The notes under the pieces: model-generated | What the model was told of the DNA's origin: nothing | Seen by the model: only the letters and a program-made list of their open reading frames with translations | Database searches by the model: none | IMG/VR virus record: IMGVR_UViG_2693429700_000023 | From: a virus | Lineage: Duplodnaviria; Heunggongvirae; Uroviricota; Caudoviricetes | Strand: one strand, 5' to 3' | Length of the DNA stretch: 10,586 bases | Program-made: the position numbers and the translations under genes | Shown here: piece by piece, positions 1,638 to 10,586 of the stretch | How positions within the stretch are numbered: position 1 is the stretch's first letter | Layout of the letters: every line of letters starts with the position of its first letter

Positions 1638-4394
1638 TCATTCTTCAGATGAGTTGTAATCTCCTGGCTGGTAATTGAGTACATAAACGTTTATTTGTCG
1701 TCCCTGAATACGTGGTGATTTTCTTTGGTATCCACGACCGCTGTTTGGTGGGGTTAGCATCCCGGCTTTTTTCAACACTTCAGCAAACTGTTTTGCGTTG
1801 AAACCACATGCGATCTCCTTTTCAAATGTGGCCGGGAATGTGTAGAAAATCATTGGGCTTTCGTCATGTTCTCCACGCTGACGGTATCCGGCTAAATCTT
1901 TGATTGGCAAATCTGCCGGGCTGTATGGAAATGGTGCAAAACGGCTAAGCCCATAGGCATTAAGAAATGCCTCCGTTTGTTCAATAATCTGCTGATGTTC
2001 TTTGTTACCTGTGCCGAACTCGCGCAACCATGCGTTATAGCTGTGCTGTATCGCATCACGGCATGTCTGAGCATCCCAGCCTGTTACAACCTCGCCTAAC
2101 AGCAATGCGGCCTCCAGAATGGCAAATCGCGCGGCTACACGGTGAACCTGCTCACCATAATCGGATGGAATCAGGCTTCTCCATCTGCTTTCGCAGTCAC
2201 GAACAGTTTTAATAGCCTGTTGCTGGTGGTCTGCCAGCCATTTAATCCACTCACGCCCGGCTGCGCCGTGGTGATGCTGGTAAGCGTCTTTCAGTGCGTC
2301 TGCGTGCTGTTTTCCGTTCTGGTAATCGTGAAAGCGTACTGCTTTACTCAACGGAATATTCAGCAGTCGCACCAGTTGCCCGGCTTTGGTTTTTCGCCCG
2401 GAAGTAGCGATAAATGTTTCTAAATCCATTTCTCCAGTGCTGATTGCCACTGTACGCCAGCGTTTTAGATCCCGGTTTCCACCATCTTTAGCGCCTTGCA
2501 GTTTCCCTACACCGTTAAATAACGCATAGGCAGACTGTGAAACACTGACAGGATCAGCGCCCTGACCAACTTCATCAAGCGGCATTAGTCCGTCATTGTG
2601 GGCGGCGGCTTCATTTGCCAGCCCCAGCGCGGTTCCGTACCACGTCAGCCGCAGTAAATCAGGGTTGCCGTATAAGCTGCTCGCCACGTTTGCCGTGGTG
2701 GTCTTACCTGCGCTCGACTGCTCATAGAAATGAATGCCGAACCCGTCAGCGCCCACCAGCCCAATCAATGGCGCTGCCAGTGCTGCGCCGATCCCGATCA
2801 TCATTGAATAGTTACCAAAGGCCAGACGCGCCACGTTATCACGCCAGCTTTTCGCGCTCCCTGAGACGGTATATCCGGCTGCGGCTGAGCTTCTCCCGCT
2901 GAACAGCACAGGATTTTCAGGTGTTCCGATGATTTCCCCATCAGGCATGATGTACGCTCCGCATTGCCAGCCAGTGGCATGAGCAACACGCCACAATTCA
3001 CGAGAGCCACTGCGTTGTAGCCAGTCTGCCAGTATTGCTCTGAGGCTGCTTTTGGTCGTGACATTTACCCCACCAGCTTTAAGTGTGCGCCATCCTTCAC
3101 GTTCACCAATATCAGCCAGTGGAATGGCAGCGGTTGTCGGCGTTTCAGAACCAAACGACAGCCAGCGAAGAATGAGATACTGGTCTTTATCGTCTCTGCC
3201 AGTACCGATAACGCTTAACGGAGAACATAACCAGCTTTCGTTATTGATGATTTCTCCACTCTGGCTGTCAGCTCTCGGAGATACCCAATAAATACCATCC
3301 TCGCGGCTTTCTATTCTTGGTTTCAGTGGGTCGGTATCCATAACCTTAAAATCGCTTCCCTCAATGGTCTGTGGCTGCTGTTTCACGCCATTACCCTGTG
3401 GTTGGTACATTGACTTATTGAACGCTTCTGTGGCGCATTTAATGCCGTGTTTTTGGTGGTAATCATTCCAGTCTGCTTTGTGATCTGTCGGGGGTAATGC
3501 CACCCATCCAGAAACAGATAAAGCTGCTTTTTCTGCTGCTATTCTCCCCGTGTTTTGTCTTCCTTCGCTGTGGTCGTTATCCGCAGCAATGATGATTTGT
3601 GCTGAAGGAAATTTATCCCGCAGTACCTGGGCGACATATAACAGGTTCCCGGCATCAATCGCCGCCACTGTCAGCGATTCTGGACGAATTAAATGGGCAG
3701 ATAATGCCGTTGCCAGCCCTTCTGCGATTAAGATGCTCTGTGTTGTTTCTGGTGCGTTTATGGCGTGATATGCCCCTCGCTTTGCTGAACCTGTCAGGAG
3801 TCTTTTTTCACCATGTGAGGTAATAGTCTGTGCTGCTGTGACTGCGCCGGATTTATCCACCAGCGCCAGCAACAGAGATCCATCGGGCAACACTGGGAAT
3901 GTAAAATCACCTACCCCTTTCGCAACCAGATAATCAGATTTGCCGTTTACAGCCTTTCTGCGCATGTCATCAAACTGACGGGAAAACGTATCCCGTCTTT
4001 GTTGTTCGTCCTTCTCTGCCCTTTTCAGGCGCTCCTGTTCGCGTCGCTGGCGCTCGGTTTCCAGTTGTTCCCGTTTCTGGCTGGTGGCTTCTGGTGTTTC
4101 CGTTGTCCGGTAATCAATACCCAGAACATCAGCGGCAAGAAGCGCCGCCTCTGTTGTGTCGCAGTTATTTACGCGTTTAATTAAATCCAGCCCATCACCA
4201 GCGCCGCACTGATTACAGATGAAGCTACCGCGCCCGTTGTCGTCGAACCGGAATCGATCTTTGCCCCCACATGCAGGGCAGGGAGCATGACGGCGAGGAG
4301 AGTCAGGGACATTTATGTTCAGACAGCCCAGCACATGAGGCCAGTTGTTTTCAGACGCACTGATAACCTGACGGATAAGATCAATGTTTCGCAT
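1638..4394 (-). CDS. Primase-helicase-like replication protein (N-terminal Zn-ribbon, TOPRIM, C-terminal P-loop/DUF927-like domain), 918 aa
   Basis: The N-terminus has CPACGG...CNQCG (CxxC-N17-CxxC zinc ribbon), then a charged ER-rich linker. The TOPRIM signatures are present: a conserved Glu (IAEGLATA) and DxD (IIIAADNDHSEGR). Further on is a deviant P-loop (SSAGKTT). SD GGGGG lies 5 nt upstream of the ATG at 4394. The family call is from motif recognition, not a search. Confidence 0.88.
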   Translation of the reverse strand: MRNIDLIRQVISASENNWPHVLGCLNINVPDSPRRHAPCPACGGKDRFRFDDNGRGSFICNQCGAGDGLDLIKRVNNCDTTEAALLAADVLGIDYRTTETPEATSQKREQLETERQRREQERLKRAEKDEQQRRDTFSRQFDDMRRKAVNGKSDYLVAKGVGDFTFPVLPDGSLLLALVDKSGAVTAAQTITSHGEKRLLTGSAKRGAYHAINAPETTQSILIAEGLATALSAHLIRPESLTVAAIDAGNLLYVAQVLRDKFPSAQIIIAADNDHSEGRQNTGRIAAEKAALSVSGWVALPPTDHKADWNDYHQKHGIKCATEAFNKSMYQPQGNGVKQQPQTIEGSDFKVMDTDPLKPRIESREDGIYWVSPRADSQSGEIINNESWLCSPLSVIGTGRDDKDQYLILRWLSFGSETPTTAAIPLADIGEREGWRTLKAGGVNVTTKSSLRAILADWLQRSGSRELWRVAHATGWQCGAYIMPDGEIIGTPENPVLFSGRSSAAAGYTVSGSAKSWRDNVARLAFGNYSMMIGIGAALAAPLIGLVGADGFGIHFYEQSSAGKTTTANVASSLYGNPDLLRLTWYGTALGLANEAAAHNDGLMPLDEVGQGADPVSVSQSAYALFNGVGKLQGAKDGGNRDLKRWRTVAISTGEMDLETFIATSGRKTKAGQLVRLLNIPLSKAVRFHDYQNGKQHADALKDAYQHHHGAAGREWIKWLADHQQQAIKTVRDCESRWRSLIPSDYGEQVHRVAARFAILEAALLLGEVVTGWDAQTCRDAIQHSYNAWLREFGTGNKEHQQIIEQTEAFLNAYGLSRFAPFPYSPADLPIKDLAGYRQRGEHDESPMIFYTFPATFEKEIACGFNAKQFAEVLKKAGMLTPPNSGRGYQRKSPRIQGRQINVYVLNYQPGDYNSSEE

Positions 4395-8383: not shown

Positions 8384-8470
8384 TTATTAATATCCTGTAC
8401 TAATGACGCAATAACTCCCTCCTGCAACGAATGGCGAGAGTTTTATTTGCATCAAATGTCGAATACGCCA

Positions 8471-8503
8471 AAGACCACAATATGAAAAACATATTGCGGT
8501 CTT
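8471..8503. promoter_or_regulatory. 33-bp near-perfect palindrome (operator-like) in the int-alpA intergenic region
   Basis: AAGACCACAATATG-AAAAA-CATATTGCGGTCTT: 14-bp arms with one mismatch, about 90-120 bp upstream of the alpA start. A palindromic TTTATAAA abuts it (8503..8510). Confidence 0.4.
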
Positions 8504-8662
8504 TTATAAAAGATAGTCAGATTGTTTTGGTTTGTTTGCTCCACAAGGGTAGAGCTACCCTGCATTTCGGCAGGATCACGCTATTAGGCGTGACATCCAG
8601 TAGTTTTAAAGAACGCCCTTTTTCAGGGCATGGTGGGCAGGCAAGAGAGCAATTGCGCTTTG

Positions 8663-8977
8663 TCAGCGCCGTAGATTCATATTTGAATCATTGTATGTTT
8701 CCCGGGCAATCTTTTCCTCTCGTTTCGCTTCCATCGGATCGATACCACCAGCGATACCTCTTTTCGCATCTTCACGTTTTGCCCGAGCATCGGCTAGAGT
8801 AACCTCAGGATACACACCTAGTGCCAATAGCTTCTCTTTACCAGCTACACGATATTTAAGTCGCCAGTATTTACCTCCATTAGGTTTTACCAAGAGATAC
8901 AAACCGCCACCATCGGCCAGCTTGTAAGCCTTCTCTTTTGGCTTGGCTGTGTCTATTTGACGGGCATTGAGTTTCAC
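8663..8977 (-). pseudogene. Tyrosine integrase (P4-family) remnant: N-terminal arm-binding region only, 104 codons
   Basis: The ORF (GTG start at 8977, SD GGAGGT upstream) encodes KLNARQIDTAKPKEKAYKLADGGGLYLLVKPNGGKYWRLKYR..., which resembles the N-terminal arm-type DNA-binding domain of tRNA-associated integrases. Full-length enzymes are about 400 aa, and only 279 bp remain before alpA, so the catalytic domain is absent. Confidence 0.7.
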
Positions 8978-9042
8978 TTGGGGGTACCTCCACTAAACCG
9001 AACAGCAAATACCCCCATAAGTACCCCCATCTGACCGTAGAT

Positions 9043-9125
9043 TTTGAGGGACTTTAGTAGACGTCAAAAGACGAACGGGGCTTTAATACGCGGATTATAA
9101 GGGGTTTTGAAAGACTTTAGTAGAC
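9043..9125. repeat. Direct repeats in the attL-proximal arm (candidate arm-type integrase or accessory-protein binding sites)
   Basis: TTTGAGGGACTTTAGTAGAC (9043..9062) and TTTGAAAGACTTTAGTAGAC (9106..9125) match at 18 of 20 positions. Nearby, TACCCCCAT occurs twice (9010..9018 and 9022..9030), with an inverted copy (GGGGGTA) at 8980..8986 next to the int start. Confidence 0.4.
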
Positions 9126-9142
9126 TTGGGGAGATGTTTGAA

Positions 9143-9218
9143 TGGTGCCGATAATAGGAGTCGAACCTACGACCTTCGCATTACGAATGCGCTGCTCTAC
9201 CAACTGAGCTATATCGGC
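9143..9218 (-). tRNA. thrW: tRNA-Thr (anticodon CGU)
   Basis: The reverse complement is a 76-nt tRNA with a 7-bp acceptor stem (GCCGATA/TATCGGC), a D-arm GCTCAGTTGGTAGAGC, anticodon loop TTCGTAA (anticodon CGT), T-arm GGTTCGACTCC and a 3' CCA. The CCA end (9143..9145) faces the mobile-element side. Confidence 0.95.
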
Positions 9219-9332
9219 CCTGAAAGGACATGTTCACGAACGTGAATCACGGTGGACAAGGTTAAAACTAACCGGGCGATGCGTCAATGGCCTTGTGAAT
9301 CAAATGGCTACTTTTGCATCACCCGGTTTTAT

Positions 9333-10586
9333 TTACGCACGAATGGTGTAATCACCAATGCCGATCCACTTGTAAGTGGTCAGTGCTTCCAGCCCCATTG
9401 GGCCACGCGCGTGGAGTTTTTGTGTGCTTACCGCCACTTCCGCACCCAGACCAAACTGGCCGCCGTCGGTAAAACGCGTAGAGGCGTTAACGTAAACAGC
9501 GGACGAATCCACTTCGTTAACAAAACGCTGGGCGTTGCGCATATCGCGGGTCAGGATCGCATCGGAGTGTTGTGTGCCGTGTTCACGAATATGGGCGATG
9601 GCATCGTCAAGATCGCTGACGATTTTGACGTTCAAATCTAATGACAGAAACTCATCGTCATACTCTTCGGCTTTAACAGCAACCACCTTCGCAGGGCCTG
9701 CCTGCAACTGCGCCAGTGCAGCTGCATCTGCGTGTAATGTCACGCCGCTTTCCGCCATTTGTTTGCTTAATGCGGGCAGGAAGCTATCGGCGATGTTTTT
9801 ATTCACCAGCAACGTTTCAACCGTATTACATGTGCTCGGACGCTGAGTTTTCGCGTTGACGATCACTTTTAATGCTTCAGCGATCTCTACACTTTCATCA
9901 ACGTAAATATGGCATACGCCTATACCACCTGTGATCACCGGGATTGTCGACTGTTCACGGCACAGTTTATGCAAACCAGCGCCACCACGCGGGATCAGCA
10001 TGTCGATGTATTTATCCATACGCAGCATTTCACTGACCAGCGCACGGTCAGGATTATCAATCGCCTGCACGGCACCCGCCGGTAAGCCGCAGGATTTCAG
10101 GGCGTCCTGAATCACCGCCACCGTTGCAGCGTTAGTGCGACACGTTTCTTTGCCACCGCGCAGGATCACCGCATTACCGGTTTTCAGGCACAGCGAAGCG
10201 ACATCAACCGTCACGTTCGGGCGCGCTTCATAAATCACGCCAATAACCCCCAGCGGTACGCGACGACGCTCAAGACGCAGGCCGCTGTCCAGTACGCTGC
10301 CATCGATTACCTGCCCCACCGGATCGGCGAGGTTACACACCTGGCGCACATCATCGGCAATGCCTTTCAGCCGTGCGGGCGTCAGTGCCAGACGGTCAAG
10401 CATCGCTTCGCCAAGGCCATTGGCACGCGCGTCAGCAACATCCTGGGCGTTAGCGTTGAGGATGATTTCGCTTTGTGCTTCCAGTTCATCGGCGATTTTT
10501 TCCAGCACGCGATTTTTTTCGCGGCTGGAGAGTTGCGCTAATTTATACGAGGCTTGCTTCGCGGCAATGCCCATTTGTTCCAGCAT
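9333..10586 (-). CDS. proA: Gamma-glutamyl phosphate reductase (glutamate-5-semialdehyde dehydrogenase), 417 aa
   Basis: The translation ([38 protein letters not shown] ... [14 protein letters not shown]) matches enterobacterial ProA as I recall it, at the correct 417-aa length. The ATG is the last three bases of the window. Confidence 0.95.

Follow-up and report, generated by a model that had tools for sequence, protein, structure and literature searches.

The thrW locus and its integrative element

The window analysed here is the whole stretch of 10,586 nt from a Caudoviricetes record (IMG/VR IMGVR_UViG_2693429700_000023). On its minus strand the order is proA, thrW, a 165-bp spacer and an open reading frame of 104 amino acid residues, the truncated int gene (Table 1). 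The spacer (8978-9142) is the int-proximal arm, on the attL side, of a P4-family integrative satellite in thrW, and it is a well-preserved but ordinary case of the known attachment-site design of that family. The 67-aa product of the alpA-family gene is a candidate recombination directionality factor.

Table 1. Genes and sequence features of the thrW locus (positions are those of the window).
Feature	Position	Strand	Remarks
alpA-family gene, 67 aa	8180-8383	minus	Pfam Phage_AlpA PF05930, E = 7e-20
Truncated int, 104 aa	8663-8977	minus	GTG start 8975-8977
Predicted inverted integrase arm-type site, TACCCCCAA	8978-8986	minus	P4 counterpart covers the int ATG
Predicted integrase arm-type site 2, TACCCCCAT	9010-9018	plus	12 bp from site 1; P4 annotation
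Predicted integrase arm-type site 1, TACCCCCAT (ATGGGGGTA on the int strand)	9022-9030	plus	Homologous to the P4 'attP arm sequence repeat'
Distal array, four hexamers: GTCTTT 9067-9072, GTCTAC 9057-9062, GTCCCT 9047-9052, ATCTAC 9037-9042	9037-9072	minus	Putative AlpA site
TATAAT box, perfect, no recognisable -35	9094-9099	minus	Just downstream of the proximal array; candidate activator-dependent int -10
Core-proximal array, three hexamers: ATCTCC 9130-9135, GTCTAC 9120-9125, GTCTTT 9110-9115	9110-9135	minus	Putative AlpA site
att core identity block, AATGGTGCCGATAATAGGA	9141-9159		Copy recurs at attR of intact relatives
thrW, tRNA-Thr(CGT)	9143-9218	minus	ARAGORN; Rfam tRNA match 71.8 bits; 3' end is the integration target
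proA	9333-10586	minus	

The nearest intact relative is found in strain CP53. Its element of ∼17 kb is satellite-like (alpA, antA/antB, ash and a TOPRIM/DUF927 primase) and encodes a tyrosine integrase of 404 amino acid residues with arm-binding, central and catalytic domains (Pfam PF13356, PF22022 and PF00589). The window and CP53 are 100% identical from position 8697 across thrW into proA. As the original prediction had supposed, attR lies outside the window: a copy of the tRNA 3' segment was looked for in the 10.6 kb and none was found. The search for a repeat of the thrW 3' end, proposed at that time, located the other boundary in the CP53 relative, where an identical 19-bp copy of AATGGTGCCGATAATAGGA forms the attR core about 17 kb off (L002 14414-14432). 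At the far end of the island of strain 7CC, a degenerate core copy with a 1-nt deletion was observed.

Relative to CP53, int is truncated by a 1264-bp deletion (L002 29804-31067), and the two alignments flanking it overlap by 8 bp at 8697-8704. The remaining fragment of 104 amino acid residues contains the complete Arm DNA-binding domain (PF13356, Arm-DNA-bind_3; residues 3-88, E = 9e-30), and the catalytic part of the integrase has been deleted; the arm in the window is therefore unable to support self-excision. The copy has thus been immobilised by the int deletion, yet in the arm it retains 100% identity to the intact relative. When a junction-spanning probe was compared with 5,426 complete E. 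coli genomes, the best-ranked match started only at 8697, and therefore no genome appears to hold the junction contiguously. A plus-strand open reading frame of 123 amino acid residues (8431-8802), with no Pfam match, spans the deletion junction and, because it crosses it, appears to be a fusion created by the deletion. Its 5' part lies within the CP53-homologous region, and a plus-strand hypothetical protein is annotated at about the same place in CP53.

Two further features were observed at the other end of the window. Positions 1-140 are 100% identical to the transposase region of the IS3-family element IS1203 (IS629-like), and because homology to the CP53 element begins at 141, the insertion sequence has cut the element within the 'phage DNA ejection protein' gene region. 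In addition, the region immediately beyond the 3' end of the TOPRIM/DUF927 primase gene (minus strand, 1638-4394) has three direct and three inverted copies of TGTTGGTTCA, at 1501-1542 and 1586-1613, whereas 0.8 copies are expected from shuffles. These copies look like replication-origin iterons, comparable to the ori/crr octamers of P4.

Predicted integrase arm-type sites and their co-variation with the integrase

The paired TACCCCCAT sites and the inverted copy next to the int Shine-Dalgarno sequence were found where the original prediction had placed them (Table 1). The repeat finder returned a tandem AAATACCCCCAT/AAGTACCCCCAT pair 12 bp apart together with an inverted arm at 8974-8987, and an 8-mer present at least three times, both strands counted, was obtained in only 7 of 1000 dinucleotide-preserving shuffles of 8978-9142. 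On the int strand of the window, gatGGGGGTActtatGGGGGTA begins 113 bp from the tRNA end and ggTACCCCCaaGTG lies at the int start. The inverted site is placed exactly between the Shine-Dalgarno sequence GGAGG (8987-8991) and the GTG start codon, and is a probable autoregulatory operator. The TACCCCCAT triplet matches the integrase arm sites of P4 in position, spacing and orientation, and its assignment as a set of P4-type arm sites appears to be essentially right.

The far arm of the intact relatives carries a corresponding pair. In CP53, TACCCCCAA-aag-TACCCCCAT (L002 14494-14514) was found 61 bp inward of the attR core, in the same orientation. The far arm of the 7CC island uses the C variant, with TGCCCCCttttgTGCCCCCA located ∼60 bp past the degenerate core and TGCCCCC occurring twice (L088, about 26056-26075).

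The survey of relatives covered one genome per species and comprised 80 loci with integrases 61-98% identical to that of CP53, adjoining tRNA-Thr, Arg(TCT), Arg(CCT), Gly(CCC), SeC, Ser(TGA) or Phe genes. In most of the 80 relatives the distance from the tRNA end to the int start is ∼165 bp, whatever the tRNA target. A GGGGGYA tandem pair was detected by a regular-expression screen in 66/81 arms, and according to the arm sequences an inverted copy precedes the start codon in nearly all of those with the pair. Position 6 of the motif (T or C) switches together in all copies within an element. Residue 50 of the integrase is L in all 43 GGGGGTA elements and R or S in all 23 GGGGGCA elements, and residue 53 is L, V or I with GGGGGTA vs F with GGGGGCA (66/66 relatives). 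The same rule holds in elements outside its derivation, namely P4, 7CC and four further E. coli elements, MEI1-1023, C11, BMH-17-0027 and FORC_028. Residues 50 and 53 (columns 50 and 53 of the L007-L086 alignment) are candidate specificity determinants of the Arm-DNA-bind_3 domain. Because the lineages are not independent, the co-variation of motif and integrase is indirect evidence, short of proof, that the N-domain reads the motif.

The integrase N-domain had originally been suggested as a ligand of both the triplet and the 20-bp direct repeats of the arm. For the triplet this suggestion is supported by the layout, the far-arm pair and the co-variation, and for the 20-bp repeats it is not; the 104-aa fragment is accordingly predicted to bind TACCCCCAT and not the 20-bp repeats.

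In sub-clades with a different integrase N-terminus, TGTATAG takes the place of GGGGGYA and the layout is unchanged. These sub-clades (L063, L069, L070, L073, L075, L079, L082, L083 and L085) carry the motif twice in direct orientation and once inverted, the latter at the ATG; their integrases begin with M-x-LTD, yet GTCTAC-type hexamers and a type-I AlpA (see below) are kept. Among L031, L033, L049, L056, L057, L059, L061, L071, L072 and L092, some arms have two direct and two inverted sites, and some are longer, at about 195-198 bp. A perfect palindrome, GGGGGCATGCCCCC, occurs in L035.

Phased hexamer arrays and AlpA-family proteins

The direct repeat described in the original prediction (9043-9062 and 9106-9125, 18/20 matches, 63 bp apart) was recovered, and it extends to 21 nt (9042-9062 and 9105-9125) with 19/21 matches and a start-to-start distance of 63 bp. 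Among 1000 dinucleotide-preserving shuffles of 8978-9142, a 21-mer repeat reached a maximum of 17 matches and never 19/21. GTCTAC occurs only twice in the 10.6-kb window, once in each repeat. The two 20-bp repeats are best interpreted as those stretches, in two arrays of RTCWAY hexamers at 10-bp spacing, that match each other most closely, and not as integrase sites. On the int strand the core-proximal array reads ATCTCC-ccaa-GTCTAC-taaa-GTCTTT and contains the repeat at 9106-9125; the distal array reads GTCTTT-tgac-GTCTAC-taaa-GTCCCT-caaa-ATCTAC and contains the repeat at 9043-9062. The distal array stops 8 bp short of the first integrase arm site, with a spacing of exactly 10 bp as determined from gapless stacks anchored at that site.

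The arrays are kept across the clade, throughout the Enterobacterales and including P4 and CP4-57. In a set of 39 arms, dereplicated below 85% identity, the core-proximal block shows conservation, and it does not vary among four thrW elements. Within the distal array, hexamers 2 and 4 are the most conserved, as GTCWAC (T, C and A positions in 61-65 of 67 arms) and ATCWAY. The strongest stretch, TTGAAATC, falls on the -35 of the P4-type int promoter, and part of this conservation could therefore be due to the promoter. An absence of the repeats from related thrW elements had been named as evidence against the original prediction, and they were present in those examined. Within the 17-kb CP53 element, phased hexamer arrays occur only in the int-proximal arm, and a search of the CP53 far arm for a GTCTAC-type array found none. 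The self-similarity of the 21-mers is confined to the lineage of the window (19 of 21 in the window, 20 in L009 and 16 in L008), and elsewhere the two arrays have only the hexamers in common. Across the clade, the similarity of the arrays averaged 12.8/21 within an element vs 12.4/21 between elements, a value reached by 33 of 2000 permutations. The whole 20-bp unit, or a concerted 21-mer pair, was dropped as a conserved element given the weakness of this effect.

AlpA homologues were found within 3 kb of int at 49/80 related loci, with no match at 30/80. Type-I AlpA (RTGYSKAWIYRL) accompanies GTCTAC irrespective of integrase arm class and tRNA target; this hexamer was found beside integrases of the GGGGGTA, GGGGGCA and TGTATAG classes, and at Thr, Arg and Gly tRNA genes. 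Type-II AlpA (SDKWIYRL) accompanies GTCAAC. P4 Vis (SRSTIYE) and CP4-57 AlpA (ARATIYD) accompany TCCGR hexamers. Among the thrW elements of the GGGGGCA class, both variants are represented, GTCTAC in L020-L022 and GTCAAC in L024-L030. Elements checked afterwards agree: 7CC (with alpA 10 kb away) and C11 follow the type-II correspondence, and MEI1-1023 also fits. One exception is L014, with a type-II-like AlpA and TCTAC-type hexamers, and at the GTCAAC-type elements at tRNA-SeC no AlpA homologue was found within 3 kb of int. Three AlpA/Vis helix types appear to map to three hexamer types, in a comparison that comprises few independent lineages and in which int and alpA are linked in each element.

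As judged from these sequences, the hexamer variant appears to track the AlpA/Vis type, independently of the arm class of the integrase and of which tRNA gene is the target. The alternative wording of the original prediction, that the repeats serve accessory factors, fits the 20-bp repeats, given that the hexamer variant appears to follow AlpA/Vis and has no likeness to TACCCCCAT. We infer that the arrays bind the 67-aa AlpA of the element and overlap the int promoter region. P4 Vis has been shown by EMSA and footprinting to bind the attP region of P4 (PMC2603039). AlpA is required for excision of the P4-like prophage CP4So (PMC5148205), and related winged-helix excisionase-like proteins stack head-to-tail, one DNA turn apart (PMC11963761).

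In P4 itself, exact GTCCGT and ATCCGG hexamers form a cluster in the leader, shortly before the start of vis (ORF88); hexamer and decamer spots lie at L087 4060-4080 and 4177-4206 (about 9059-9079 and 9176-9205 of P4). The AAAGTC spacing units of the att arrays have lookalikes in P4, where three decamers (CACTTAAAGT-like) are annotated as 'ori type 2'. The PLL-leader hexamers and the 'ori type 2' decamers were considered as further Vis sites and were not used, the resemblance being within chance.

The int control region, reading of the arm and known systems

The perfect TATAAT of the window comes just after the proximal array (Table 1); among relatives, conservation of a TAnAAT-like box at the corresponding place is no more than moderate. 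Because a consensus promoter and terminator scan of 8900-9300 called nothing, the promoter positions are derived solely from the comparison with P4 and from the clade consensus. This consensus is TTGAAA-18-TATATT, where P4 has TTGAAA-18-CATAAT; its -35 lies in the spacer of hexamers 3 and 4, and its -10 between the two integrase sites. The corresponding P4-type promoter position of the window itself, 9018-9047, has poor hexamers (TCAAAA and TACTTA). Because the -35 and -10 overlap these sites, Int on the arm sites and AlpA/Vis on the hexamers would occlude the promoter. In P4, both Int and Vis repress int (PMC2951348; PMC7286903). Moreover, read-through from thrW into int may occur, since no terminator is predicted between the two genes; int of ICEKp1 is driven by read-through from the tRNA promoter (PMC13023037).

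We consider it probable that the arm combines integrase arm-type sites, excisionase hexamer arrays and the int control region. All three sites on this side, the TACCCCCAT tandem and its inverted counterpart by the int start, would be bound by the Arm domain of the integrase; together with the far-arm tandem pair (∼60 bp past the core in intact relatives), they would let the integrase bridge arms and core in the intasome. The position of the arm sites over the P4-type int -10 and the translation start would lead to autorepression by the integrase. Copies of the AlpA/Vis winged-helix excisionase may be placed head-to-tail on the arrays of 3 + 4 hexamers, one helical turn apart, and array-bound AlpA would modulate the transcription of int and, for excision, bend the arm. 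Which protein binds which site, and with what effect on transcription, we infer from the anatomy, conservation and co-variation of the sequences, which were directly observed.

Rather unlikely, in our estimate, is the alternative that the hexamer blocks are mainly promoter or regulatory elements of int (a -35 element, or operators for an activator or repressor) with no architectural role in recombination. The alignment of the clade consensus with the P4 promoter, with its -35 in the spacer of hexamers 3 and 4, and the TATAAT after the proximal array agree with this alternative, as does the AlpA of CP4-57, which is annotated as a DNA-binding transcriptional activator and activates intA. However, it is not exclusive of the combination of arm sites, arrays and control region, and the sites of P4 and KplE1 serve recombination and regulation alike. 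In the window, moreover, the scan gave no promoter and the hexamers of the P4-type promoter are of poor quality, and a -35 element would not need an array of four units, phased at exactly 10 bp, right beside the integrase sites.

The first option of the original prediction, under which the integrase N-domain would bind the 20-bp repeats as additional arm-type sites, is very unlikely. The repeats do lie within the arm, in direct orientation and, at 63 bp, in helical phase with each other, but they have no sequence in common with GGGGGYA. The hexamer stays GTCTAC while the integrase motif becomes GGGGGCA or TGTATAG, and within the GGGGGCA class it shifts to GTCAAC when the AlpA type shifts; the CP53 far arm, when searched, was without a GTCTAC-type array.

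A function at the RNA level, in which a GGGGGUA/UACCCCC hairpin in a thrW read-through transcript would attenuate int or mask its translation, we regard as highly improbable. It would suit the lack of a predicted terminator between thrW and int and the precedent of ICEKp1, which at tRNA-Asn uses the tRNA promoter and 5'-UTR stem-loops (PMC13023037). The inverted site could pair in RNA with site 1 or site 2, giving a predicted G/C-rich stem of 8-9 bp by the Shine-Dalgarno sequence and start codon, and this pairing is kept through the T/C switches. However, in the consensus fold of 31 leaders the pairing stops at the 8-bp protein motif and nothing more is supported, the whole arm folds no more stably than its shuffles (z = 0.29), and the Rfam search matched only the tRNA and nothing in the arm. 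The tandem direct copies, the far-arm pair and the direct repeats would also be left unexplained, and a structured-RNA reading of the arm was not adopted on the strength of the z value and of the limit of the pairing in the 31 leaders.

That the repeats are due to chance, are relics of local duplication or are sites of host factors such as IHF or Fis can practically be dismissed, even with the near-identity of the 21-mers restricted to the lineage of the window: the shuffles never reached the observed repeat, the blocks are conserved across the Enterobacterales, no IHF consensus (at most 1 mismatch) was found in the arm or in the CP53 far arm, and the coexistence of three hexamer variants among elements of E. 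coli points to a factor encoded by the element and not by the host. Because the high 21-mer identity is confined to that lineage, recent duplication or gene conversion may nevertheless have contributed to it.

The assignment of the arm to integrase, excisionase and int control can be extended to a joint reading, which is put forward tentatively and as possible rather than probable. In this joint reading, the 3 + 4 phased RTCWAY arrays would be a conserved feature of P4-clade attL, read through an AlpA/Vis code; residues 50 and 53 of the integrase would set the T or C of its motif; and the int remnant would act as a lock. The proposed recognition code, equally tentative, pairs SKAWIY with TCTAC, SDKWIY with TCAAC and S/A-R-S/A-TIY with TCCGR. 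The lock, a suggestion of the same modest standing, would consist of the 104-aa remnant, still made, acting on the arm sites as an autorepressor or in a dominant-negative manner. The N-terminal part of P4 Int reportedly acts in this way (Piazzolla et al. 2006). No description of RTCWAY phased arrays in P4-clade attL arms was found in the literature searched.

The arm alone is textbook-style and mostly confirms that the thrW element belongs to the P4 integrase family. The by-products, which are modest and drawn from sequence comparison, are the residue 50/53 rule and the AlpA-hexamer correspondence. The analysis gives exact site assignments for widespread islands and satellites of the Enterobacterales, together with a prediction that integrase residues 50 and 53 select GGGGGTA vs GGGGGCA and a proposal that AlpA/Vis helix type is matched to hexamer type. 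Such rules could predict the cross-talk of co-resident islands, that is, which integrase or excisionase mobilises which element, and could also guide the retargeting of integrases.

Among the known systems, the P arm of lambda attP offers a parallel in concept only. There, a filament of Xis forms on the direct repeats X1-X1.5-X2, about one helical turn apart, beside the integrase site P2, so that an excisionase filament borders directly on an arm-type site of the integrase. Neither the proteins nor the motifs are related to those of the window, and the lambda Xis sites are on the arm opposite to int. In ICEKp1, as in the window, int is directly downstream of the tRNA gene with no terminator between them; in contrast, its transcription is state-dependent through 5'-UTR stem-loops, whereas the arm of the window is without conserved structure beyond the 8-bp motif (PMC13023037). 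The attL of KplE1 (CPS-53) is closer in organization: int lies by attL, its promoter is buried among the arm-type P' sites of IntS and the sites of TorI, and int is down-regulated by both integrase and excisionase (PMC2951348). It differs in its arm-site motif, which has a conserved TAAA, in its excisionase, TorI, and in its target, argW.

The attL of CP4-57 (IntA and AlpA, in ssrA of E. coli K-12) shares the tandem pair, the inverted copy before the Shine-Dalgarno sequence, phased hexamers that end 7-8 bp before the first integrase site and an AlpA-family gene downstream of int. It differs in the arm motif (AGGCCCA), the TCCGA-type hexamers, the ssrA terminator inside the arm and the integrase N-terminus.

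The system closest in layout is P4, whose arm repeats were reportedly described by Pierson and Kahn in 1987. The differences from P4 are in the details of the sites and their partners: the window has GGGGGTA and an integrase with L50 and L53, whereas P4 has GGGGGCA and R/F at these residues; the hexamers of the window are GTCTAC-type and its target is thrW, whereas those of P4 are TCCGR and its target is leuX; and the window has a 67-aa AlpA as partner, degenerate P4-type promoter hexamers and a truncated int, whereas the partner in P4 is the 88-aa Vis. The likeness extends to the integrase, with the same domain set and 43% identity between the Int proteins of CP53 and P4, and to insertion at a tRNA 3' end. 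In P4 (GenBank X51522), the annotated 'attP arm sequence repeats' consist of two tandem 12-mers per arm and one inverted copy over the int ATG. The tandem 12-mers on the int side, cattGGGGGCAt and aattGGGGGCAt, are located about 113 bp from the core, as in the window, and the far-arm tandem pair lies about 54 bp from the core, the range with the relatives included being 54-62 bp. Between the core and the integrase sites, P4 likewise has 3 + 4 phased hexamers, TTCCAA/ATCCGA/GTCCAA and GTCCTG/TTCCGA/GTCCGT/ATCCGG.
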